The notes under the pieces are model-generated. The model was given only the letters and a program-made list of their open reading frames with translations, had not been told where the DNA came from and did not search any database. A program made the translations under genes and the position numbers. Positions 10,900-64,000 of a stretch of DNA of 64,000 nt are shown here, piece after piece (position 1 is the stretch's first letter; every line of letters begins with the position of its first letter). The stretch comes from Raillietiella orientalis (Eukaryota). The stretch is from NCBI GenBank assembly GCA_036172245.1, contig JAYWIR010000022.1, forward strand, positions 2,604,001 to 2,668,000, given 5' to 3'.

Positions 10900-13800
10900 G
10901 AGGGCGGCCTCTCAATCCGCGAAATCCTCAAGCGTGCGACCCCCCAAAGTCCTTGGATGTCGACTCGAACCGCAGAAGTCCACCCAGTCGCGTCAGGGTG
11001 GACAGTGGGCACCGAAGAGGCAGGAGAGGCGGATCAAGGGAGCGCGCATCTCTGAAGGCACCGGGATCGACTCAGACGGTGAGCCTTCCGCGGCTCCACG
11101 TGCTCCAGCGGGGAGGCGCGGCCGATCCAGGACGCGCGCCCGCAACTCTTCCCCGAAGCTGTTCCACCCGCCCGGCACGGACCTGAATCCGTCTGCCTTC
11201 GAGACGAGGGACTTCGACGAGGAAAGGCAGCCTTCGCTCGCCACGGCCACCACCTCCGCTGCCGGGCACGACCCACTACCCATCCCGACGTCGCGGCGGC
11301 GGAGGAGAAATCGTTCACGGCAGGAAGCGTGGCGCCGCCGCCGGGCAAACTCCACGGAGCTTTCGCAGGGAGCGAAATTCGGGAGCACCGAGCAACGCGC
11401 AGCCTCTGCTGAAGAAGAAGTCTTCCTTCCCTGTGCACCCTTCGAGGGGGGGACAAAAGGGAACCTCCTCAGCTGCCTGGAAGGGCAGTCATCGCGCAAA
11501 CAGGCACGTTGTCTTCGCTGGTGGGAAGCACCGCGTGAAATCCTCGGAAGGAGTAAGGAACAAAAAAGAGGGAGGGAGGAAGGAGCAAAAAAGGAAGAGG
11601 AGGAGGAGGAGGAGGAAGAAGAAGAAAGGCATGTCTCGAATCTGTTTCAATTCGCCATCAGCAGCTGCGCACCCGCGTCGTCCGGTGATCTGCTCGCTGC
11701 TGGCCGCAGAGACTGCTGACCGTCCTGCCCTCGGCCGCGAGCTCGGAAGCTCCGGCAAACCCCTCAAGGCGGCGAGGCCCGGAGAGGCCCGGAGAGGTCC
11801 TGCAGGGGCCAATTCGCGTGCAGCGCGCCGAAGGTTCCCTTTTTTGTCGCGGGCGAGGCGACGCCTGGGCGGACCCACGACCGTGTGCGCCGAAGAGCTC
11901 CTGTCCATCGGGTCGTGCGCGTCGCCACGTGGTCGCCTCTCTTCGCGCCCGACGCGGCTCGGAAGACATCCAACTGGCCCCCTCCTTTTCAGGAGCCTCC
12001 GAAAGCCTCCCGGCAGAAGGGAACCGGGTGAGAGGGGGGGAGAAGCGGTCGAGGACGCCGTCGGGTCGGCAAAAGAGCTCTCGGGAGTCAAAGAGCCTCC
12101 GTCCGAACCGGATGCCTCGCGGACCTCCTGCGTGCGAACTCTGTCCCCTGGTCCACTCTTTCGGGTTCTCTCGGATGGCCGGAGGACCGAACCGCGGATC
12201 TTCGGCTGAAGAAGAAACCTTCCCGCTGGCTTCTCCCTCTGGAGATCTCTGGGCTGACTGATCGGAGCACCAGTCTTCGAGCGCGTGTCCGAACGCGCGC
12301 GCGCCCGCTTTGGTGCATCAGACGGCCAGCGAAAGTTTCCATGCTCAACGCCACGTCATTTTCTTGGGCAGCGGTCAGAGCGCCTTCCGTCGCACCGGAT
12401 CCGAGCGGGTGGCGGCGGCGAGAGCGTTTTTGTGCGAAAGGTGAGTGCCACCTCTTTTCTTTTTTCTTGGAAAAAAAAAATAAAAAAATAGAATCTTTTT
12501 TTTTCTGCCGCTTTTCCGTTCTTTGCCGCCCTTGTGAGAGCGCGAGAAGCGCCCGTCATGCAGAAAATCAAAAGCTGCGTACCTCCAGAAGTGAGCAGCA
12601 TAACCGGGACAGCGATCTTTGCAATGGGAGCAGATTTTGGGAGCATCCATCTTCTAGCGGGCCTCACGTCCAAACGTGGGGGAGCCTGAAATTGCGAGAG
12701 ATGCGGTGACAAACATCTCTCGAGACGAGATCAGATGCCAAGCAGCAACAACAAGTGTGGAGCGCCACGCGTCGCTGCTTGTTGAGGCGACAACCGCAGT
12801 CTCCCTCGAGAACAGCCATGCGCCGGGCCAGCACTAGCTGGTGCGCCGAGAACCTCGCGTGCTTCAAAGGTCTTCCACGTGAAGACCCCAGCAGACCCGT
12901 CCTCCCGCTGCGAAGGGGCGAGAAACTCTGGAAGCGAAAACAGACGAACGGCAAACCGAGGAGGCGGTTCCCGGAAGAGAACGGATGGTGGGCCTTTCAC
13001 GTGGCCTTTCACCTCCACGCCAGACGACGATGGCCCCTACGCAAGAACGCGTTCCGAAGGGGAAGCACGAGAGACTGAAGCCGAAGGCTGGGAGAAAGCA
13101 CTCTACTGCCGGCGAAGAGTCGCAGGAAGGAAGGGAATAGAAGGAAAGGGGCAAGAGACGCTGCTGCGGTGCAAAGGGGACGTGGGGGCAATGCGCTCCC
13201 ATTCGGGACGAGTTCCCTCCAGCAGACATTCGCAAGAGGGGACTGTGATGCGGTTCAAAGGAGCACGCAGGTCTCCGAGCCACAGACGGAGGCGAAGGAA
13301 TCTGCTCTGGATCTACGCAAGGTGAAGCTTAGGCAGACAACGACTTTTTCGAGAGAACAGTCGTTCTTACTTCTGTTTTTGGTTTTTTTTATTCATGACC
13401 TCCTCACCACCATCAGGACCATTTCAATTTCCATTGGCACACGCAGTCTTGGTTATAAGGGTCGTGACGGTCTTCGTGTCACCGGTTTTTGTGTCTTTGT
13501 GATTCTGAGCACGTGCATGTGCATATGAGTGTACCAAAACTGGTGCACACACTTTGTGTGTGTGGGAGGGGGTGGGGGGGAAGACGCAACAAACAAACTG
13601 TGCGTCTTCTTCCTCCCTTTAAAAAATAGAAAGAAGGGAAAGAGCATCTCAAATTAGAGTTGGAAGGAACCGAAACCCTGGATTGATCCTTGACGAGTGG
13701 ACAGGATGGGAAAGCTGCGTTGTGAAGACGAATGCCGCCCCAAGGCACGCGTGTCGAGACACATGGTGCGGTCGACGCCACTCTCGTTTTTCCGAAAGCA

Positions 13801-17900: not shown

Positions 17901-18189
17901 GAAAGATCCCTCCCACGCACCAATCCCCGGACCCCCTCACCGCGCGCGCGCTCGGGAGCAGCTCGCCATCACCACCGGGAGAGCCAATTTCCGGACGTGC
18001 TCTCTCCAGCGTCTAACTCGCCTCGAAGAGAGTAAACGCGCCTTCTCTGCGGCGCTCCCGCTCTGCTGTCGCGCCGCGAGCGCTCAACCGGACACGTGAG
18101 CACCAACCGATCCACGCAGGGGTCTTCCGAGTTCCTGGAAGGTCCTCACCAGCGAACCACCGCGTGAGCTTTCGGCAGCACCGCGCGCG

Positions 18190-19259
18190 CCAGCGGGGAG
18201 GCGCGGCCGATCCAGGACGCGCGCCCGCAACTCTTCCCCGAAGCTGTTCCACCCGCCCGGCACGGACCTGACTCCGTCTGCCTTCGAGACGAGGGACTTC
18301 GACGAGGAAAGGCAGCCTTCGCTCGCCACGGCCACCACCTCCGCTGCCGGGCACGACCCACTACCCATCCCGACGTCGCGGCGGCGGAGGAGAAATCGTT
18401 CACGGCAGGAAGCGTGGCGCCGCCGCCGGGCAAACTCCACGGAGCTTTCGCAGGGAGCGAAATTGGGGAGCACCGAGCAACGCGCAGCCTCTGCTGAAGA
18501 AGAAGTCTTCCTTCCCTGTGCACCCTTCGAGGGGGGGACAAAAGGGAACCTCCTCAGCTGCCTGGAAGGGCAGTCATCGCGCAAACAGGCACGTTGTCTT
18601 CGCTGGTGGGAAGCACCGCGTGAAATCCTCGGAAGGAGTAAGGAACAAAAAAGAGGGAGGGAGGAAGGAGCAAAAAAGGAAGAGGAGGAGGAGGAGGAGG
18701 AAGAAGAAGAAAGGCATGTCTCGAATCTGTTTCAATTCGCCATCAGCAGCTGCGCACCCGCGTCGTCCGGTGATCTGCTCGCTGCTGGCCGCAGAGACTG
18801 CTGACCGTCCTGCCCTCGGCCGCGAGCTCGGAAGCTCCGGCAAACCCCTCAAGGCGGCGAGGCCCGGAGAGGCCCGGAGAGGTCCTGCAGGGGCCAATTC
18901 GCGTGCAGCGCGCCGAAGGTTCCCTTTTTTGTCGCGGGCGAGGCGACGCCTGGGCGGACCCACGACCGTGTGCGCCGAAGAGCTCCTGTCCATCGGGTCG
19001 TGCGCGTCGCCACGTGGTCGCCTCTCTTCGCGCCCGACGCGGCTCGGAAGACATCCAACTGGCCCCCTCCTTTTCAGGAGCCTCCGAAAGCCTCCCGGCA
19101 GAAGGGAACCGGGTGAGAGGGGGGGAGAAGCGGTCGAGGACGCCGTCGGGTCGGCAAAAGAGCTCTCGGGAGTCAAAGAGCCTCCGTCCGAACCGGATGC
19201 CTCGCGGACCTCCTGCGTGCGAACTCTGTCCCCTGGTCCACTCTTTCGGGTTCTCTCGG
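18190..19259 (+). repeat. 1070-bp direct repeat, copy 2
   Basis: Same sequence as 11105-12174. Identical translations appear twice in the ORF track. Confidence 0.95.
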
Positions 19260-19299
19260 CCTACCTCCTCCGTGCTCCTCCCTGGACCCTTTTTTTTGC

Positions 19300-20700
19300 T
19301 CCCTCCCGCTCAGCCGGAGAACGCCTCGCTCTCCGGTGGATTTATGTTTTTTTCGATGGCCACTGTGCTCACGAGGAGCCTCGCCCACCACTGGCTCGGG
19401 GTCGAATGGAGTCCTCCGGTTCGCCGCAACCTTCGTGACGGCCGCGTGACTTCTCGGACCTCTGTCCGCAGATGTGCCGCATGCGACGTCCTGCTCCTGC
19501 CGCATGCCCTCTACCTCTTTCCCGCCACTCGGTGCTCGAGGCTCCTGCCGCTTGCCGGAGGAAACCGGGCCGGGTCGAGTCACTAGCCCCTTCGATGGCG
19601 CCCAGGTCGTCAGGAAGATTTCGGCGTATGGGATGCTTTGCACCTCGTTGCCGCCGCCGTCGCCTCCGAGGGCGCCTTCGTTTGCTGCCGCCCTCCTCCC
19701 CGATCGCCTGGAATGTAACCGACGGCCTTGCGTTCCGTTTCATCCGTGTCCGGAGGCAGGCGGAAAAACCCCTCTTCGGACTCTGTAAGGAACCTCAGCA
19801 TCTCACAGAAAAGGGAAAGTCTTTTTTTCCCCCTCTCTCCCCCTTTTTTTCCTCCCTCCCCTTCCCACCGAACGTCACCTCTTTCGACGCATCGGGTCCG
19901 TTTCTGGCGTCGTCGTGATCGTGCGGATTCCCAGAACTTCGAACGACCGGATCCATGATGGATTTTTAATGACTCCGCGGTCGACGCTTGGAAGCGGCAA
20001 GCGGGCGGCCCAATAAGCAAGCTGCCGCCAAGAGGTTTTCCTTTCTTTCCGCTCTGCTGCCCTCCTGCGCGGTGAAAGGCGGCGAGCAGCGTGGCACGGC
20101 CAGCCTTCTTCGACGCGTGCAGCATTTCCCCCTCCCTCGAGGCCCCCACTGGTGGGGGCAGGCGGACGCCTTTCTCCCCTCCCCCCGTCGCTGTTCCTGC
20201 ATGGACCAGCCGACCTCCCTCACACCTGGAGGATGCGCGAGGAGGAGCTACGAGCTGGAGCCTATCATCTGCCCCTACATGCTGATACAGTCCCGCCGCC
20301 AAGAAGAAGGCATTTCCTCCTCCGATGGCTGCAGCGCACAGCGGGCGCGGCAGGTGGCTTTTACCGAACGAAAAGTCATCTCACGGTGGTGCGCACTCTC
20401 TTTCCCACACGACCCACGCAGCCCCTTAATACGATCAAGTCGACCGCTTATTAGATGGTCGCGGGTTCGCGGGGGAAACCCAGAAAGGGTACCCAACGCG
20501 AGTGGCACGTGCACCACTCTCAGAAGTCGCATCCCGCGACGGCGTGCATCTCTGGAGTGGGACGCAAACATGCGTCCGGACCAGAGATGCAGTTTCCGGA
20601 TCTCCCAGAGCGCAACGGTTCTTGCAAAGGACGGAACAACCATTGCGAAACGATAGCGCCAGTACGAAAAACTAAAAAATATCTTCCTGCTGCAACCTAG
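19300..20700 (+). mobile_element. Degenerate BEL/Pao reverse transcriptase
   Basis: Remnants in order: GRPNKQ (GPxL), RPAFFD (DIxKAFLQ), YELEPIICPYML (FGLxxSPFLL), SLEWDA (LGLxWD) and TIAKR (TKR). Confidence 0.5.
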
Positions 20701-47900: not shown

Positions 47901-49328
47901 GTGTTAGTCTTCGGAGAATCGTCTGTCGAATTTTTTTTTTTCTTTTTTTCCCCCCCTTGTAGAGATTGCTTGGAAGCTTCAGGGCCGGATCACTCTCAAG
48001 TGATTTTTATTTTTTTGTTTTGTGGACTGTTATTTTATATCACACAGTCGCAGTTTTTACCACAGCCGATCAAGTTTCACAACGTGTTGTGATCAGTAGG
48101 TATGATGATCTCTCGCGCCATAAAATTTTCGTGTTTTGTGTTTTCCGTGTTACGTAACGGCACTTACCTCAGATTTGATTTCAGGAGTCAAATGCTTTGC
48201 CATCTAGGTAGCCACTTCTGTTCATTTGTTTTTAATTCGAAATTCTGAATCACTGTGTGCTATCGAGTAATTCGTTGCAGAATGACGAATGCTTTTGTTT
48301 TCATGTTCACAACATTCATAGTATGTGCTCCCCTAAAATTCAAACTCTTTGGACGCGAGTTGGTTTGAAGGCATACAGCGAACTGTCATGTTGAGGATAG
48401 AAAGTTTGTTCATCAGAGTGTATAAATTCCAACATGATTTCCGGAATATCCGGCGGACTGGTGCCAAAAATTTGTTCTTTGAAAAAATTCTCATTGCACA
48501 TGCTTGTTATATGATTGTGGTTGCAGCATAGGTAAATGTTTCAAAAGAATCCAAACGTCAAATGAAATCTTAGTGAAGGATTCAACGTTTTGAAATAAAA
48601 GTCAATGCGATTGAAACTATGCTTGCATTGAACCAATATTTGGTTTCAGTTTCAAGCACTAATTGTACTTTTGTATTTCTCAAAGGTACTTTCAATGACT
48701 TTTTGAAATTACTTGTTCTTGTCCATGTATATCATAGTGCACGTCTCTGAGTTAATGGAAGGTTACGTCTTGAAACTTCGTTTTTAATGCATTGGGTGTA
48801 TGTTATGTTGGTGATCCAGGCTCATACCAGATCAGGACAGTTGTTAAATTCTATCTGCATGCAATTATCCGAATTGTGTGGGCAGTATTTTCCCAGTTGA
48901 CAGCGCATACTGCTGCCAGAGTTGTGAATAGAATTTTGTATTGGAATCTTTATTTCAGTATGATTTGTCATTTTATATAATCAGATCATTTGTATGTATA
49001 ATTTTTTTGTCAGAAATAGCAGAATATCTTGACTACCCCTATTTTCCTGATATCCACCTATTGGAATGTCTCTGGACTGATCCAAATAATTTTTTGGAAA
49101 TGTCCAATGAAAAGTACTTCAAAACACACTTTTATGCCATTGTACACAAAAAAGATCTTAAGCATCTATTTTGAAATGTTTCCATGAATGTTTATTCACA
49201 TTAAAAAAAAGAAGTGATAGTTATATGAAGAGTTGAATTTTATTGCTATATATTGTAAGACTGATTTCAGGAGTTAATTATTTTCTTCAACTTGAATTTA
49301 GAAACTTGAAAGTTCCATAAATTTCGAA

Positions 49329-50515
49329 ATGAACTTGGAAAAAAAACTTGTCTCCTCAATAATCAAGTTTTTGAATAATCAAATTGGATCAGGAAAGTGT
49401 ACTTCAGATCAAGTAGAAAGCTTAGAAGTTGCTGTGCAATGTTTGGAAGCAGGATTTGAAATTGATCCTTCAGATGGGAGTTTAGAAGTTCCTGCTGATT
49501 TATTGAGCATTTTTAAAGAATTTCTGAATAAGGGTACACAGGTGGGTATAAATATTTTTTTCCTTAGTGCTTAAAGGCGTTAAGTGTATTAATATTCAGG
49601 AATATGCACAAGAATATTTAATTTGAGATGTTATATATACTGAAGCTTTCTGATTTCACAACAAGTGGTTTCAGGCAGCAGAATGCATCCATAATCCACA
49701 AGCTGCAGAGCAGTATAAGCATGCAGCCAATGAGCTCATGAAACAAGAAAAATTCAAGGAAGCTGTTGAACTATATAGCAAGTGAGTTGATTGGAACACT
49801 GCTCCTCTGATTTTCTGTAGAGCTATAGATATGGATGGAACAAATAGTGTTTATTACTGCAACCGTGCTGCTGCTCATAGCAAATTGGGGAATCATTTGG
49901 CCGCTGTCCAGGATTGCAAGACTTCTTTGAATTTAAATCCTGATTACAGCAAAGCTTATGGTCGTTTGGGGTAGATGAGCAGCTGTTTGGCAGTTAAGAT
50001 CGGGAGAATCTATGTTATAACCATAGGTTGGCATACACCAATATGAATCAGTTGCCAGAAGCAATAGCAGCTTTGAAGAAGGCTTTGGAACTGGAACCAG
50101 ACAATGTGGCATACCAAACAAATCTCAAAGTAGCTGAGGAGAAGCTGAAAGACAATGCTGGTGGTAGCAATCGAGCTTCAGGAATTGACTTGAGTTCTTT
50201 ATTGACCAATCCTGCACTCCTAAACATGGCAACCCAAGTAATTCAGGATCCAGGGATGCAGCAGATTATGTCGGGCATCATGTCTGGAAACATGGCGCAA
50301 TCTCCAGGGAGCATGAATGCTCTGCTTGAAGCGTGAGTCAATGCATGTATGTGTGTGTTCTAGTTTTATTCTGTGCACCTCAAAGGGGACAGCGACTTGC
50401 TTCCTATATGCAAAATAGTAATCCTGATCTTGTGGACCAACTCCGCCGTCAGATGCAGGGATCAAATCAAAATAATAACAGCACCAACCCAGAACCCCAG
50501 GATCCTAGTTCTTAA
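49329..50515 (+). CDS. SGTA: Small glutamine-rich TPR co-chaperone (SGTA/sgt-1); exons 49329-49541, 49675-49781, 49821-49970, 50027-50332, 50386-50515
   Basis: The spliced product has the SGTA dimerisation motif (QVESLEVAVQCLE), three TPRs (AEQYKHAANELMK, YYCNRAAAHSKLG, PDYSKAYGRLGLAY) and a C-terminal STI1/Q-rich part (NPALLNMA...LLEAGQRLA...NPDLVDQLR). All four introns are GT-AG (133, 39, 56, 53 nt) and preserve frame. AATAAA lies at 50552. Confidence 0.95.
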
Positions 50516-50789
50516 CGTGTTTGGTTACATTCCTCGTTATTTTTGGCTGATAATAAAAAAAGTCGTACGAACATCGGTTATAGTGGGAGAAGTGAAACAA
50601 ATAGTGGGAGAAGTCAGAAGAGATGAATGACTTGCATCTGAAGAGTTAAACAGTGGGATGAGCCATACGACATTTGTCTTGGGAAGATATGGAGTCACTT
50701 TATGGTGGTTTAAAGTTTATTTCCGCATTTTCTTTGATTCCTTGGAATTGAGCTATTGATGTGTTGAAATAGACAGACAGAAGAAATCT

Positions 50790-53154
50790 TTAGTATTTCC
50801 ATTTTTGTAAGGAGTCTGATCCCCATTTGTTCCATTCTTCTGAAGTAATTCTGAGTGCCTTGAAATCAGAAGATGTAGCCAGGAGGCATGATCCCAAGTA
50901 TGATGCATGGTGGCGGTAGGGAGATGAGTGCACCTATTCAATTGGGAATACACTCATATATCAGCTTCAGCTGACCTTTGGTTGCATAGATGGAGGAGTG
51001 AGCTTGCTAATCTCAGTTGCTAATCTTTCACTGAATCCAGGAAGCATTGTTACACCGCCTGAAAGAAATATGCTTTTGGCCATTAATTTTCTGATATCCA
51101 AACTACATTCCTATAAAAACAAAAATCTGTAGAAATTGCGCAGTTTGTTGTAGTTTACCATTAATGCCTTATGCACCACCTTGTGTAGACCAGGATTGTC
51201 TAATCCCCACATATCGGGCTGGAATAAGCCTTCCGTGCACCGAAATCTCGCCACATCCAAGCATATTTGTGTGTATGGTAGCCTGTCTGGCGTTTCACAA
51301 AATTGCTCGATCTTAACCCACTTCTGAAAGGTTTCAGGATGGTTCTGATGTTGACGCAATTCCTTTTTGTACGATTGAGCACAGTAACAGTGCGTTTCCA
51401 GAATGTAACGGATCAGATAAGATTCCACATCCGTATCGAATGCGCTGTCTTCATTCAGCAGATACTGTCGCAAATAGTCAACCATGGACCCTCCACCATG
51501 TGGAATGCTGAAAACTCCGCTTTCGATAACATAACCTGGAACAAGTACAGATTCCTTAAAGGTTGCAATTGCTGCCGTACCATCCGTGACCGGGACCACA
51601 TCAATCCGCTCTCCAATGTCCACCACGATGCCGGTCCTCGAGTTGTAAGAGTATAAAGAAAGAATCGTTTGAGGTGTCACGTTCAGCCCTTTCATGCCAA
51701 ACTGATCGAATACAAGGGCTGCCAGCTCCGACTGCATGCGCATATTGGATATACTGATCTGCAGATAATAATTTTGGGGATTGATTTCAAGGCCGTTAAA
51801 AACATGCTTCAGTATCTCGGCAATTTCCTTGATGTTTACTTGATGCTAAAATAACTGGTGAACTGAAGAAGCGTTTTCTAAACGAACGCACCTTGTTTAT
51901 TCTGACATTTGATCTCAGAGGATAGATAAGTGTGGAACGGTTTCTTACTGAAGAGCGCAGTGCATCGCACCCAACTATCGCACGTCCGGTCGGGTCATAG
52001 GCGACCACGGTCGGAAAAAATAGTTTCGGTAGAACAGCTTCGGTAGTACAGCGTGTTATTTGTGACCCAGTGAATCCAAGCTTACGTTGCGAACTCACTA
52101 TTCCGGCTCTGACAGAACAACTTCCCAAGTCCACTGCTATAATGTTAGTGAATAAGCTGGGATTTGTACAGCTAGCCAAAGGTTGTACATATAGCGTATC
52201 AAAGGCTTCGACTGTGTGTGAAAGCAATGCTTCTTTCCAGCGCTGAAATTCCTGCTTGCTGCCACATCGGACGACCAAATAGTGACCTTTCTGCACGAAA
52301 AAACTTTGATTAGCGTCTTTTGTTCCGCCACGACGTGTACTTACGTTATCATCAATCCCAATCGTATACATTTCTCCTACTTCCTAGGTTTTATTCCCCA
52401 AACAGATGTACATTTATTTCAGAAGGAAAAAAAGCGCAATGGTTACCTTTCCGTCTACAGAAGGCGATGGTTCCATGGTTTCAATGTTTCCACCCATTAG
52501 CTGCAGAAGTAAAGTTGGCTTCTCTGACTGATTATTCTGAAATCATGCATTTTTTTTGTTGTTGTTGTTGTAACGATACCAATCGTAAGTAGACCTGATA
52601 ACAATAAAGATATCCATTTTCGACTCTGAAATACCGGCGTTTCCACGCATTCCAGAACGTTGCCTTGCGGCGTCCGTGAGGCAAGTTGTCGAGGTAACCT
52701 TCGATGTTGATGAAATCCGGCGCATTACCAGGAGGAACTTCTGGTATTTGGATACGATAGAGTGACTGGAGTAATAGATGCTGGAGTACTCGCATCATGA
52801 ACGTCATGAAACTGAGGCAGGGATCGACCTAACTGGACTCCAGTTCAGTGTGGTGACGCGTGCTCTCCCAATGCTTCCATTCTCCTCGGAATCGGAGGAC
52901 TCTCTCATTTTCATCGTTTCCCAGGACTGAGATTCGTTCATTCCGGCCTCGTGGTTCGGTGAGGTCTTCCGGTGGCTGTGATCATGGAGATCTCCGCTTT
53001 CAAACTCTGTGCCCTTGGTCGGAGTAGTTTTCAGGTTGCGATTACCGGAAGCGTCGATCATGCTACTTTCGAAATGGTTCCTTAGTGCTTTGACTGAAGG
53101 CAGGAGGTTTTTCTCCCTGCATTTTTCTTCTTGCGAGTTCTTCATGTCTGCCAC
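50790..53154 (-). CDS. PH-domain + actin-like fusion protein, 5'-incomplete; exons 53154-52834, 52780-52595, 52536-52447, 52383-52345, 52290-52086, 52037-51892, 51845-51581, 51535-51159, 51110-50976, 50933-50790
   Basis: PH domain: IEGYLDNLP..WKRRYFRVENGYLYCY...EFQRWKEAL. Actin motifs: IIAVDLGSCSVRAG, LFFPTVV, QTILSLYSY.RTGIVVDIG, RFRCTEGLFQP, IFLSGGVTMLPGFSERL, ASYLGS, ITSEEW. Nine GT-AG introns (42-63 nt) all preserve frame. TAA ends at 50790 and a minus-strand AATAAA lies at ~50716-50721. The first visible exon starts at an acceptor (gtgtag|GTG). Confidence 0.9.
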
Positions 53155-53649
53155 CTACACACAGTCGTTCAGGTACTCAGAATTCTATTCGGGACTTTCA
53201 ATTCTTAGAAAATAGCGAGCAAAAACCATCGGAACCGTATTAGCGAAAGAGGTTACAGAGAGAAGCATTCGGAACACCAACGCGACTGAGTTTGTTCCAT
53301 TGGACAAGTGACGATGATGCTTATTCCATCAGTGAAACAGTGCCTTCCAATGAAGCAGACTTGCTAAAAGTACAGTGCATTCAAAGCATTAGCCCCCGCA
53401 ACGTCCAATATCAGCATAACCGGCCTATGGAACCGACAAGTCCTCTTTTATTTTCATTCTCGGTCATTTTTTTTTTTTGGCAATCGTTTAAACGTGAATG
53501 CAAATTCACTCGAATTTTTATGGAGCTCATTTTAGCAGCATTACTTTCATGCATTGAGTTTGCACGCTGTCCCCACCGACTCGTCCCTACTATGAAGACC
53601 GGCCGACCTCGGTTCCATGGGAAGCCAGGTCGGGAGTGCGGTCACCTTG

Positions 53650-55400
53650 TCGGGATTTCGTTCCCGGAAGACATACGACAGCGGGTTTGAGAATTTCTTT
53701 CCTACCTACGACAGACCCAAACTTAAAAAACGTACTGGAGGTTGCCTTCATTCCGAGATTCGGAATTCACAAAAGGCAAACGAAGCTGCTGCAAGCGCGA
53801 AGACGTTCGTACACGGAGGACGCTGACCGATTCCGAGCGCACTCTTCGCAGTCTGGTCAGTCGCCCAGAGTAGGCGAAAGAGAAAGCTCCGAACCTGCAG
53901 GGACCACGAAGCGGTTCCTGCGGAGATTCCGTCGAAGGTCCGGCAGGACAGAGGCCAGACGCGCGTCACGTCACTTGCAGCGGCCCCAGGAAGGCGCGGG
54001 TTCCTGTGAGGAATCAATACCCGGGGTGAAGAGAAGGATGCAAAAGGAAAGGGCGGGGGAAGACTTCGAAGGAGAATCATGGAGAGAGGCGATTCCTACC
54101 CGGACTTCGAGCTGCCGCGCCCTCGTGTCCTGGAAACCGTCCCCTCCCCCGACTGTCTCCCGAATTCCCGACTTTTCTTCCCGCGCGACACTTCCGCCTT
54201 GGAGCTCCACGCGCTTGCGCGTGCCTCAGCGCCTTGAGGAAGTCCGGAGTGGAGGAACACCTGCCAACCTCCTGCGACTTCCCTGTCCGAGGTCGTTTCC
54301 CCACGTTCCTTTCGGGCCAGGCTGCAGCAACCAGCTGGAGCGATTCAGCTATCCCCTCAGAGTCAGTCTTTCCCTCTTCCCGCCTAACAGGGGCTCCCAC
54401 TCCGCTGATATGCTGCTGGAGGCCAGCAGGAGTCCTCCTTTCCTGTTTCCCCTATCAGTGACCTCCAAGGTTGCTGCCGGATACTCCGGACGGAGCGACT
54501 CCCGCAGTTCCAGGGAGCACGCGCGGGAAGACATCCTCTTTCCGGGAGCTTCCTAGGGTTTCCGGGAGACCGCTTGCGCACGCACCGGTGCGACAAGATG
54601 GGAGACCCATCTCGCCCCTCCCTTCCACCCTAGCCACCTCCAAACCGCCCTTCCCTAGGAGACCCAGCCTGAGACGAACTCCCTCCTTTCCCCTGCTGTC
54701 CGCGGCACCCATTCCAGGTGGGAGCGTTCGCGCGACCGAGAGGCACGGGAAGAGTCCACCACATACCTTTGCCTCGCTGCCCGGGGAGCGTCTCTGCCTG
54801 AGAGTCTCGCTGTACACGTCGACCGAGCGGTCCTGCTGGGGGTCCTCGCCTTCCGGGCCGGAGACGGCGCTCGGCGGCGCCGGCACGGTGCCTAAGGGAA
54901 ACGAGAGGGAAAAGAAGGAGGCGGAAACATCCGGCCACCTGCGGCGGAAGCGACGCGTCACCACCACCACCGCCTCGTCATGACCCTCCCCTTTCAACCC
55001 TCCGCGACGCAGACCGGGACGCGGGGGAATGACCCGACGTTTCGACGGGACTGCTGCACCCGGGACGCGTGCCTCTGCCAGAGGGAGATGTGGAGCAGCA
55101 AACCCGGCACCTCGGACGAAGTACTGAGCGCGGTGCCCCGGCTTGATCACCCCACCCGTTCCCAGCCCCCTCGTCCTCTGCTGGCACAGCGCTGACCTAA
55201 CCTCCCCCACTGGGGCTTCCTTCGCAACAGGGGAAGAGGGGAGGAGATCTTCTCCCCGTTTCGTGGCCACCCTAGGCGCGGGAGCTCACACTTCCTCCTT
55301 GGACCTGTAAGGAGTTCTTTCGCTCCGCGTTTACTCCTCCGCTGCCCTTTTCCTCCTCCCCTTCTTCCTCCCTCTCCTTGCTGCGAAGGAAGAGGGCGGG
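53650..55400 (-). mobile_element. Degenerate L1/Tx1-like ORF2 C-terminal half
   Basis: KGGLEV (GGLG, ~54645) and zinc-finger remnant LCPAGPSTESPQEPLRGPC (~53950-53895). Confidence 0.45.
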
Positions 55401-61319: not shown

Positions 61320-63280
61320 AGAGGAAGGGAAGCGAGGAATGCAAGGAGGAATCGATCGTCCGGGGAGAGTACACGCGACGGGACGACCCTATGTGCCGCG
61401 CAGCAAGGGGAACCGCGAGACCCTGACTATGCTTGCCACAAGATGCTCCCCCCCTACATCGAGAAGAACGCAATCCCCTTGCCGCCAGAGGGCGGGAGCT
61501 TCTTTCCGCCCGAGGACTACGCGCCTCCACTGGGAGCTGGACCGAGGGAGGCCGATCTGGGTCGAAGTTCCCCAAAACGCCGACCGGAATCAGAAGCAGA
61601 CTGGGGGAACAGGGGGAAGAGAAGGGGACAGTCGCTTCCTCCACAGGGTCAGGAACTTCCGATGAGGTCAGAGGCGAGGCTACAACAGACCCGTCCTTCC
61701 CGAATGGGAGAGAAGTGGGAACGCCTCACCGCCACTCTTCGTCGTCTCCTCGCTCTTCCCTTCCCTTTTCCTCTTCATCTCCTGTCCTTGGGGCGTTCCT
61801 CTCGTGGTTTCGGGATCTCGTGCGCGAGCCCTGAGAGCCCCGCCGGACGCCTCGGAGAATGATGGGGGTCATGTTCGGTCGGCGCGTGTTACGACAACGC
61901 AACAATGCGGTCCGGCAACGACATCGGCGCCGTCTCCTCAGCGGTCGGCTGTCGGAGCGACCGCTCCGAGCGCCGAGCTGAGACGACCGTGAGGGGGCGC
62001 ATTCCGGTTTCCGGCGCGAATTCTCGGGAGTTCTTTGAACTTCGAACCGGTCAGCTGGAAGCTCACAGTCCCGTTCGGCCTCCTCCTCCTCTTTCTCTTC
62101 CCCTTCTCCGCTGCCCGCTGCTCCTCAGACCGACTGAGTCCTCTCCCGGGGAACCCAGATTTGACAGGAGGAGCGGAAGGGGGATGCCCTCGTCTCTCTC
62201 CTTCCTCACGGGAAGTCGGGCGCCGTTCCGTGCCAGGACGCCACACTCTGCCGTCTTCTCCCGTTCGCCTTCCCCCCACCTCGAGCCACTTCGTTTGGTG
62301 ATAGCATCCTCCCCTGGCAGCATGTGCCCGTCAAACGGCAACGGAATCCTCCGCGCTGAAGAAGCTCAGAGGGCATTTGGATTCTGTTTGAGGGGGGAGA
62401 GCGTGGTCAAAAGGGTCGGCCCCCGAACATGAAGGCATTTTCTAATCCTACTCCTATTCCTCCTCTCAACACAGGAGCGCTCAGGAGATCAGCTGTCGCA
62501 ATAATCCAATCGCTGCTTGCCCTCGAGCCATTCCCGCGCGGGAAGACGGTGAGGCTCGTCAAGGTCACCAGCGTCCTCCTCCTCCCTTCCGCTGCAAGCT
62601 GCGGCACCTCTGATGCTTCCTGGCCAGCAGTGCGCGACTTGGTTGCACTCGAGGCTCCGGGGGAGGAGCGCAGGAAGAGAGGGGGTCCCGATATAGGGGG
62701 TCGAAGGGGACCCGGTGGAGGAGTCAACCAGCGGACCTCGGGACACGGGAGGCACCTGGACCCGGCTGGGACATCCGATTTCCCTCCTCGGGAGGGTCAA
62801 AAATCCTTTCTGGGGATGAAGGAGGAGGATTTGGAAACGGTGGAAACTGCTGCGGCAGAACCTCCTTCCTTTCCCTCCCCCAAACGGACTGCAGTGGACC
62901 CTTCCGAGGATGAGGGAGGATGCACACGCGCATTCCGTCTGCCTCGCCGAATTCCCCTGCAAAAGGCGAGAGAGCTCGAAGGCCGGAGCAGGGGCAGGGA
63001 GCGAGACCTGCCGGTCTCGCTCCAACCCGGTCCCACCCTCCAGGAGCGCCGCTATCTCGCGCCGAGAGGAAAGGGGGATCCCCCACCCTGGTTCGTTCGC
63101 GGGAGGAGCACCATGCAGCGGCAGCGGCTCCTCATCCTTGCAGAAGAAAGGGGAAGGGGAGAAGAGCATTTCCCCGATCTCCCGTTTGACCGAGTCCTCC
63201 CGACGCAGGGATCGCCGCGCTCTTTCGAGGGAGTGGCAGATTCCGGACGTCGGTACCGGGGGAGGGGTTAAGGGGAATAT
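61320..63280 (+). mobile_element. Degenerate L1/Tx1-like element: ORF1 end, APE endonuclease, linker, start of RT
   Basis: APE remnants in order: LQQT (LQET), SRGFGI (SRGVAI), REFFEL, RFDR, TPHSAV (SDHxAV) and NGILRAEE. Then LQKKGEGEKSISPIS (KKG..RPIS). Confidence 0.6.
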
Positions 63281-63333
63281 TCTCGTCGCTACTCCCTCAC
63301 CCCCCACCCCTCGCAGGGAACCGCGACGCTTAC

Positions 63334-64000
63334 CCGCTTCCGGTAGCAGATCCGCTGGGTCATCCAAGAGATATGCGCCTCCGCTGCTCCGGCCGCCGGC
63401 TGTGGGGGCTCGCGCCGGCATCCAGGAGTCCTGTAGGAAGGGAGCGCTGAAGTGGCGGCCGGGCGGAGGAAGAGGATGGGGGAGGGGTGCGGCGCCACGT
63501 ACCTCCAGGAGGGTCTCTTGGCACGGACCGCCAGTTCCGCGGGGGAGGGCGATGGACCTGGGCGTGTCGTAGATCGGAAACGCCGCCTTCGGCACGTCGT
63601 ACACCGCCGCCTCGACGTGGGAGCCCTCGTTGGCGTAGGTGGGCTCTGCCGCTGCCCGCTGCCCCCACCTGGAGGGGTGGACGCGGTCCCCCGCGTTGTC
63701 GTCGCCGCCGCTCTCCTCTTCGGGCGACCGGCAGCCTCCGGAGCGGCGCGCGGGACGCCCGCGCGCGTCCGGCCCCTGGCAGCGGCAACGGAAGCGCGAG
63801 CAGCAGCAGCACCTTGCGGGGGGTCGCCTCTGCTGCTGCCCTGGAGGCGGCGCGACCGCCTCGTATGGGTTCTCGGGGCTGTCGGCGGAGGCGCCGTCGA
63901 CCGCATCTGCGTCGTCCATCCCAGGCGCTGCGGCGGCGCGGCGGTCACTCCGTGCGCCGCGCTGTCCTCGCCGCTGCTGCTGCTGCTGCTGCCGGCGACG
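63334..64000 (-). CDS. Probable coding exon of a host gene; low-complexity with clustered Tyr motifs; runs off the window edge
   Basis: The frame is open from 64000 to a consensus donor (GCGG|gtaagc, intron starting at 63333). It encodes ENPYEAV, EPTYAN, VYDVP and IYDTP. Confidence 0.55.

Follow-up and report, generated by a model that had tools for sequence, protein, structure and literature searches.

What does a gene encode when a PH domain and a complete actin fold stand in one reading frame, and would its product still behave as an actin? The question is raised by a 64,000-nucleotide stretch of DNA from Raillietiella orientalis (assembly GCA_036172245.1, contig JAYWIR010000022.1, positions 2,604,001 to 2,668,000 of the forward strand; hereafter the window, in whose coordinates all positions are given), where a first-pass annotation had described an intact PH-actin fusion gene with a remodelled, probably non-polymerising actin fold. 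We found that the locus, at 53154-50790 on the minus strand, is a real, intact PH-actin fusion gene of 10 exons and 9 introns, encoding a 632-aa protein that begins with a disordered region, continues with a PH domain and ends in a complete actin fold. Sequence comparisons place it as the orthologue, in an arthropod-like genome, of the family of Caenorhabditis elegans F42C5.9, and as a member of the arthropod clade of that family.

The ten exons had been reported to splice cleanly, and they do: all nine introns are GT-AG and 42-63 nt long, and a single open frame of 632 codons runs from the ATG at 53145 to the TAA at 50792-50790. Exon 1 (52834..53154, all exons being on the minus strand) follows an AG acceptor before 53154, contains the first ATG and encodes the N-terminal disordered region, whose residues 2-104 can be aligned to crustacean homologues, and the first half of an NWSP/HLLLQSLY motif. 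The PH domain starts in exon 2 (52595..52780, residues 105-166), passes through exon 3 (52447..52536, residues 167-196), which is collinear with homologues, and through exon 4 (52345..52383, residues 197-209), a loop of variable length among homologues, and ends in exon 5 (52086..52290, residues 210-277) with the C-terminal helix RWKEALLSH, followed by the linker and the first actin phosphate loop, DLGSCSVRAG (within 52143-52102). Because the close of the PH domain and the opening of the actin fold share this one exon, the two cannot be separate genes, and the proposal of a single intact fusion stands. The fold continues in exon 6 (51892..52037, residues 278-326), covering actin subdomain 2 with a shortened DNase-I loop (D-loop), FPTVVAYDPTGRAIVG (52017-51970), and in exon 7 (51581..51845, residues 327-414), with the Gln137 site PQTILSLY (51674-51651) and phosphate loop 2, VVDIGERIDVVP, in which DIGERID lies within 51626-51591. 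Exon 8 (51159..51535, residues 415-540) encodes subdomains 4 and 3, exon 9 (50976..51110, residues 541-585) the adenosine loop LSGGVTMLPG (51065-51036), and exon 10 (50790..50933, residues 586-632) the C-terminus QKWKY, then TAA, so that every peptide quoted in the annotation, including the C-terminal WKY, was recovered in place. An AATAAA at 50716..50721 on the same strand, ~70 nt past the stop codon, is the likely polyadenylation signal.

Three junctions were settled by comparison with homologues. The exon 1/exon 2 junction must yield NWSPHLLLQSLY by homologue alignment, and an alternative GT-AG site restores that motif; for exon 5, use of the donor at 52086/52085 brings back RAGIVSSQPVLPKLFFPTV, the counterpart of RAGILSSQPSLPQIFFPSV in the homologues, and this decided the choice. 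The other acceptor for exon 2 and the other donor for exon 5 were excluded by the same alignment. The intron before exon 8, at 45 nt in frame and stop-free, is invisible to an open reading frame (ORF) scan and was called because its excision restores VPVTDGYVIESGV, matching VPIIDGYIVEGGV in homologues. When the Pfam search proposed in the annotation was run on the seven stop-to-stop pieces, Actin was matched on three (E 2.1e-16; 5.4e-9 with exon 9; 2.6e-4 with exon 10), PH on one, the ORF enclosing exon 2 (E 0.0094, below the cut-off), and no Pfam family on the remaining three. Of 69 family columns with a conservation of 85% or more, the window protein has the majority residue in 65, and such agreement, like its alignment with family proteins over residues 2-630, is far beyond chance.

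Directly before the PH domain lies a family-specific motif, NWSPHLLLQSLY (residues 101-112; 52757..52845, minus strand, a span that includes the 53-nt intron at the exon 1/2 junction), for which the family consensus is WDPxxLLxxLY. Its Trp, Pro and Tyr reach 90% conservation or more in the family alignment, and in a model of a barnacle orthologue the motif forms a confident helix (H169-175). The PH domains of three orthologues (P0175, P0172 and P0173) score 33.9-46.4 bits, above the Pfam PF00169 cut-off, and window residues 127-234 are collinear with these orthologues without large gaps. The loop between strands beta1 and beta2 is basic, GRRKATFWNAWKRR. The window protein carries two marks of family membership, the WDPxxLLxxLY motif directly before PH and a C-terminal Actin domain (PF00022) directly after it in one polypeptide.

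Homologues had been expected to exist in databases as uncharacterised proteins, and they were found from arthropods to nematodes, F42C5.9 among them. An exhaustive HMMER search with the largest exon piece returned 1455 proteins at E <=1e-3, 243 at 1e-10 and 36 at 1e-30, the best of them 42-48% identical, with lengths to 3013 aa (partial records aside) and the match at the C-terminus. A word-indexed search with the same piece retained none of 1436 candidates at E 1e-5; the family surfaced only with exhaustive HMMER. When the top 20 HMMER matches were scanned, Actin was present in all 20 and PH just before Actin in 14. The homologues are named 'uncharacterized protein', 'PH domain-containing protein', 'actin' or 'actin-like'. 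Some automatic names do not fit the family, such as 'Actin-related protein 8', 'Actin-related protein 10', 'Histone-lysine N-methyltransferase SETMAR' and 'POTE ankyrin domain family member J-like', the last being the automatic name of a clam family member. Arthropod members come from decapods, a barnacle, an ostracod, a copepod, a centipede, odonates, scorpions, spiders and Limulus; the others come from many molluscs, the brachiopod Lingula, annelids, a nemertean, a priapulid and many nematodes. Several family clades consist of metagenome or transcriptome records without a taxon, and in named records the distribution is limited to protostome animals. When the Protein Atlas was queried with a divergent member, the clusters that came back were all nematode or arthropod ones of the family itself.

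The spliced window protein is 40-50% identical over its full length to uncharacterised arthropod proteins. It aligned with crustacean proteins over residues 2-630 at 44-50% identity and up to 586 bits, and with F42C5.9 (UniProt Q20329, 552 aa, 'PH domain-containing protein'), which falls within one of the family clusters, at 29.8% identity over 531 aa (E 3e-90). In a FastTree phylogeny (LG+gamma, 100 sequences, 382 columns) with 12 outgroups, comprising actin and unnamed actin-like search matches with no curated actin-related proteins (Arps), all 88 family sequences formed one clade (Shimodaira-Hasegawa-like support 0.83) on a stem of 0.79 substitutions per site. The window protein was the earliest branch of the arthropod clade (31 leaves, support 0.91), on a long branch of 0.62.

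To what extent the fold remains an actin was read from 86 family sequences including the window protein, with a conventional actin from the search (P0148) as reference and numbering as in muscle actin at Asp11. Much of the nucleotide site is kept: Asp11 (76 Asp, 10 Glu), Gly13 (86), Ser14 (62), Gln137 (85), Asp154 (75), Gly156 (86), Asp/Glu157 (72), Glu214 (82), Gly301 (86) and Gly302 (81). Other positions are replaced, with Gly15 mostly Cys, Ser or Ala, Lys18 changed to Arg in 84 sequences, Gly158 to Arg in 67 and Lys336 to Tyr in 63, and His161 is deleted in all 86. A largely deleted D-loop and a lost His73 had been claimed, and both are borne out: the D-loop core, actin positions 40-48, is absent from the window protein, most of that stretch is missing in all five aligned sequences displayed, and position 73 is Pro in 45 of the 86 and Ser in the window protein. 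The window protein also lacks position 161 and, as a lineage-specific deletion of three residues, positions 109-111, and carries insertions relative to actin after positions 80 and 235. Its identity to conventional actin is 27-29% (26/122 in subdomain 1, 9/37 in subdomain 2, 36/104 in subdomain 3 and 26/89 in subdomain 4, with subdomain limits as we take them to be). It has all four features by which the family's remodelling was defined (shortened D-loop, deleted His161, Arg158 and Arg18) and lacks those by which a conventional actin was defined (high identity, intact D-loop, His73 and His161). This pattern suggests that the pocket can still hold nucleotide and that the hydrolysis machinery and the D-loop longitudinal contact are altered; the deleted D-loop core, missing His161 and lost His73 point to a domain that may not polymerise, as the annotation had supposed, and the filament-like pattern of the worm protein and a weakly predicted contact with actin are compatible with co-assembly or end binding.

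The fold itself is predicted to be complete. Modelled with AlphaFold2 from an 86-row alignment, the barnacle orthologue P0175, which is 42% identical to the window protein, had a mean predicted local distance difference test (pLDDT) score of 82.3 and a predicted template modelling (TM) score of 0.78, with pLDDT >90 over the PH and actin parts and a disordered N-terminus; together with the residue comparison, the model agrees with the description of a complete but remodelled actin fold. All 50 Foldseek matches listed were actin entries (target-normalised TM 0.88-0.94, 25-28% identity). In a Foldseek-independent comparison of the barnacle model (VIA), the top match was conventional actin at Z 41.3 (root mean square deviation 1.6 A, 344 residues aligned), against 35.6 for the Arp2/3-complex chain 1k8k_A, 33.5 for Arp4, 31.4 for a dynactin chain and 29.3 for Arp8; chains of the INO80, SWR1 and dynactin complexes scored about 30-33. 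When the family profile was searched against the PDB, the best 60 of 167 distinct sequences were all named actin, with no Arp among them (best E 5.5e-72). Among the matches listed, then, the modelled fold is nearer to actin than to any Arp, in line with the earlier view that the protein lies outside the standard Arp classes. Judged from profile and fold scores, and from a tree whose outgroups include no curated Arps, the evidence leans against membership of a canonical Arp class.

Exon 1 also encodes a candidate F-actin-binding motif, newly noted here. VKALRNHFE (residues 18-26; 53068..53094, minus strand) matches the V-x-x-L-x-x-x-F-E core of the short linear F-actin-binding motif (SFM), of Lifeact/ITPKA type, and the exon 1 segment LLPSVKALRNHFES is conserved in 9 of 10 rows of the N-terminal alignment. 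The conserved SFM positions are P1 Val, P4 Leu, P8 Phe and P9 Glu, common to Lifeact, ITPKA and many human proteins, and the affinity of the motif for actin filaments is given as 2-12 uM in the 2026 report (PMC13364712). VKALRNHFE has all four conserved residues and, like those motifs, lies in a disordered region and forms a short helix in an orthologue model; unlike them, it shares a chain with an actin-like fold, and it falls outside the human set analysed in that report. Among the 149 family proteins with at least 150 residues before PH, a set in which isoforms and close relatives are included and counts are not independent, the pattern occurred upstream of PH in 45, at 105-277 residues before it, compared with a mean of 0.7 and a maximum of 4 in shuffled sequences (n=200). 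It was present in decapods, a barnacle, an ostracod, a centipede, a damselfly and copepods. Docking of the SFM helix onto the same protein's actin-like domain was considered and found unsupported, as the helix has pLDDT <50 in the monomer model.

Published information on the family comes from high-throughput data, within the literature searched. A 2013 table lists F42C5.9 with the entry 'Actin-like PH domain' (PMC3651406), so the novelty suggested by the annotation is reduced, the family being already catalogued. A literature search, which left most subscription-journal papers outside its coverage, found no dedicated or functional study of PH-actin fusions or orphan Arps. Matches for 'actin-PH' in that search were phalloidin papers. 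The family is thus catalogued yet functionally unstudied in the literature covered, and the window gene adds a member to its arthropod clade. In C. elegans body-wall muscle, F42C5.9::GFP (green fluorescent protein) was reported at the cell membrane and in filament-like and dense-body-like structures, and the gene was flagged with an RNA interference (RNAi) phenotype from an earlier screen (PMC3096668); the membrane signal lends indirect support to the membrane targeting that had been proposed. F42C5.9 was also among the actin-binding Gene Ontology proteins rising after Cry5B exposure (PMC9704757) and among the 'foundling and orphan genes' of an antifungal RNAi screen (PMC4850687). A further study gave a Q20329/Q03601 (NHL-1) interaction from interactome databases and treated the F42C5.9 protein as nematode-specific and a possible drug target (PMC3083401). 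The wide protostome distribution found here corrects the nematode-specific view.

What, then, might such a protein do? The best explanation, which we consider reasonably probable, is that it is a cortical membrane-to-actin adaptor. The PH domain, with its basic beta1-beta2 loop, would hold the protein at the plasma membrane, and in arthropods the Lifeact-like SFM helix VKALRNHFE may bind the sides of actin filaments. The actin-like domain probably still binds nucleotide, without the parts for a normal longitudinal contact and normal hydrolysis, and, instead of assembling into its own filaments, would dock on those of actin, on their ends or on actin-binding partners. Long isoforms would add a large disordered N-terminal region from upstream exons. 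In complex prediction, conventional actin and the barnacle actin-like domain scored 0.50 (runs 0.53, 0.50 and 0.44), with the best control at 0.00, a partner pLDDT of at least 83 and a contact agreement between runs of at least 95%. Of 78 solved complexes 51 reach the pass mark, as do 2 of 108 mismatched pairs; at scores of <=0.60, the passes comprise just 5 of those solved complexes and every one of the 4 passing mismatches.

Several points weigh against this adaptor reading. The predicted actin contact is weak support, and the model may have remembered solved actin-actin complexes. As a pattern the SFM is short, and the corresponding helix in the barnacle model (H47-54) has pLDDT below 50. 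Nematode, chelicerate, mollusc and annelid members lacked the SFM in all 16 checked (relaxed pattern, bar one off-position match), so the motif, being absent from the worm protein, cannot explain that protein's filament-like pattern. The localisation itself was obtained with an over-expressed, C-terminally tagged protein, a caveat stated by the authors (PMC3096668). As for membrane binding, the window PH piece scored 16.9 bits, below the Pfam gathering cut-off of 25.1, and covers profile positions 2-35 only; it holds just the beginning of a domain that is spread over four exons. The beta1 Lys of homologues (YLEKLP) is Asn in the window protein (YLDNLP), and no Pfam PH match at E <=0.01 was obtained in C. 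elegans F42C5.9 or the Steinernema protein. Exon junctions, the 5' end and isoforms are read from homology and splice signals.

The main competitor to the adaptor is a polymerisation-competent actin isoform with an N-terminal membrane anchor, which would co-polymerise, nucleate or cap, fixing filament ends to the membrane. In its favour, actin comes first among structural relatives (Z 41.3), the nucleotide site is for the most part retained, and the C. elegans orthologue, without an SFM, is nonetheless described in filament-like structures (PMC3096668); the complex prediction (0.50 versus 0.00 for the control) adds weak support, passes at <=0.60 being more often wrong than right. We regard such an isoform as rather unlikely, however, given that the D-loop core at 40-48, used in the longitudinal contact, is deleted in the window protein, that His161 is missing from every one of the 86 sequences and His73 is also lost, that identity to actin is just 27-29%, and that the N-terminus of the fold is directly occupied by a bulky PH domain. 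A different use of the same losses, speculative and in our estimate unlikely, would make the family a membrane-anchored actin mimic, disabled in hydrolysis, that sits at one end of an actin filament. The barbed-face cleft and nucleotide pocket appear to be kept, with the D-loop core and His161 lost, a combination that could present a permanent 'ATP-like' barbed face templating or capping filaments at the plasma membrane, where the filament would be secured by the PH domain and, in arthropods, by the SFM helix as well. If true, this would make the protein a single-chain, Arp2/3-independent tether or nucleator specific to protostomes.

Direct contact with actin is dispensed with altogether if the fold, nucleotide-free or nucleotide-locked, serves as a protein-binding platform for other partners, for instance the TRIM-NHL protein NHL-1. 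Nuclear Arps act as scaffolds, and G158R, the lost His161 and a K336 that is mostly Tyr (63/86) would alter the nucleotide cleft; the Q20329/Q03601 interaction (PMC3083401) could be taken the same way. The platform is nevertheless distinctly unlikely, since strong conservation of D11, G13, Q137, D154, G156 and G301/G302 is hard to explain without nucleotide binding, and the filament-like and dense-body-like pattern of the orthologue points to the actin cytoskeleton. We find it very improbable that the gene is a canonical Arp class member, such as Arp8 or Arp10, that gained a PH domain. UniRef names of this kind exist ('Actin-related protein 8' in Toxocara, 'Actin-related protein 10' in Brugia timori) and are automatic; against them stand the PDB matches of the family profile (the best 60 of 167 all named actin), the ranking of VIA Z scores (41.3 for actin versus 35.6 for the Arp2/3-complex chain 1k8k_A, 33.5 for Arp4, 31.4 for the dynactin chain and 29.3 for Arp8), and the family's position as a clade of its own on a stem of 0.79 substitutions per site. 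A jump in GC content, from 73% in an upstream exon to 46% over the ten exons, might hint at a decayed or mis-assembled locus, whether a pseudogene or two neighbouring genes read as one. That account can hardly be entertained for 632 codons without a stop or frameshift, nine introns that are all GT-AG, 65 of 69 conserved family columns kept, a single exon across the PH/actin boundary and the same architecture in many phyla.

Set beside known systems, the adaptor candidate is closest to F42C5.9 and its protostome orthologues, with which it shares the order of WDPxxLLxxLY-type motif, PH region, short linker and C-terminal actin fold, the shortened D-loop, deleted His161 and G158R, and a common clade. 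It differs in belonging to the arthropod branch, with an SFM-like motif and conserved upstream exons that are lacking in the nematode proteins checked, and in the deletion of actin positions 109-111; the worm protein, for its part, fails to reach E 0.01 with the Pfam PH model. Conventional actin has the same complete four-subdomain fold and the same Gln137, Asp11, Asp154, Gly156 and Gly301/302 adenosine loop. The family fold, unlike actin, lacks the D-loop core, His161 and His73, has G15, K18, G158 and K336 replaced and insertions after 80 and 235, and is fused to a PH domain and a long N-terminal region. With the canonical Arps (Arp2/3, nuclear Arp4-9, dynactin Arp1/Arp11) it shares a divergent actin fold, probably acting as a non-filament module in a larger assembly (Z 29-36), yet it scores nearer to actin than to any listed Arp and is limited to protostomes in named records; to our knowledge, no canonical Arp has a covalently fused PH domain. 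Dictyostelium filactin and primate POTE-actin are likewise larger multidomain proteins that end in an actin or actin-like fold, with different N-terminal domains and presumably independent origins. POTE-actin contains a near-identical actin retrocopy; the PH-actin fold, by contrast, appears ancient and is strongly remodelled. The fusion is conserved over many invertebrate phyla, including C. elegans and parasitic nematodes, and is not a single-genome curiosity. An actin fold with a nucleotide site, without the D-loop core and His161, and joined to PH, is a natural experiment in what actin can do beyond polymerisation, and the family is most easily studied in C. elegans.

Where the gene begins is a further question. 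The annotation had set its limit at 53154, which is indeed the first base after an AG acceptor (53156-53155), but the gene extends further upstream. A predicted upstream exon, U1 (54767..54891, minus strand, 125 nt, 73% GC), has AG...GTATGT flanks and encodes EDPQQDRSVDVYSETLRQRR, ending EDPQQDRSVDVYSETLRQRRSPGSEAK; it was matched by tblastn from 12 of 17 family queries (best E 8.5e-4) and joins stop-free and in frame to 53154, giving SEAKVADMKNSQ. U1, newly noted here as a putative in-frame exon, carries no Met, and further 5' exons would therefore be required for a long isoform. The intron between U1 and exon 1 (53155..54766, minus strand, 1612 nt) would house an internal promoter if a short isoform from the ATG at 53145 exists; owing to an in-frame TAG at 53157-53155, that ATG is the first available start if transcription begins inside this intron.

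Still further upstream, a candidate coding segment of low confidence, VYDVPKAAFPIYDTP, with two YxxP-type motifs, was matched at 63518..63640 (minus strand) by 3 of the 17 tblastn queries, all decapods (E 0.017-0.23); it is on the same strand as, and collinear with, the rest of the PH-actin gene. When 18 long family proteins were compared by phmmer with the 112 minus-strand ORFs upstream of exon 1, nothing was found at E <=1, so the upstream exons are supported by tblastn alone. Pfam scans of the 502-aa upstream ORF and of the piece with U1 gave no family. A weak tblastn match at 9466-9344 contains a stop codon and was treated as chance. At 62489-64000 on the minus strand, a 503-codon frame runs open to the window edge; it has a high content of Pro, Gly, Arg and Gln and contains YDVP and IYDTP (YxxP-type) motifs matching decapod long isoforms; if it is coding, the gene would exceed 13 kb and run off the window. 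GC content shifts inside the gene, from 73% in U1 to 46% in the ten downstream exons, where GC at third codon positions is 48%. Across the window, GC per bin is 35-48% within 44-54 kb and 52-66% elsewhere.

Convergent with the PH-actin gene, a neighbour with short introns at 49302-50515 on the plus strand encodes a small glutamine-rich tetratricopeptide repeat (TPR) protein of SGTA-like type, with an SGTA dimerisation domain (E 8.8e-18) and TPR repeats; its stop codon lies ~275 nt from that of the PH-actin gene. At the other end of the window, GC-rich stretches at 10993-12355 and 18084-19309, ~7 kb apart, give near-identical ORF translations on both strands (for example 10993..11646 and 18084..18731), which indicates a duplicated segment or repeat of ~1.3 kb.

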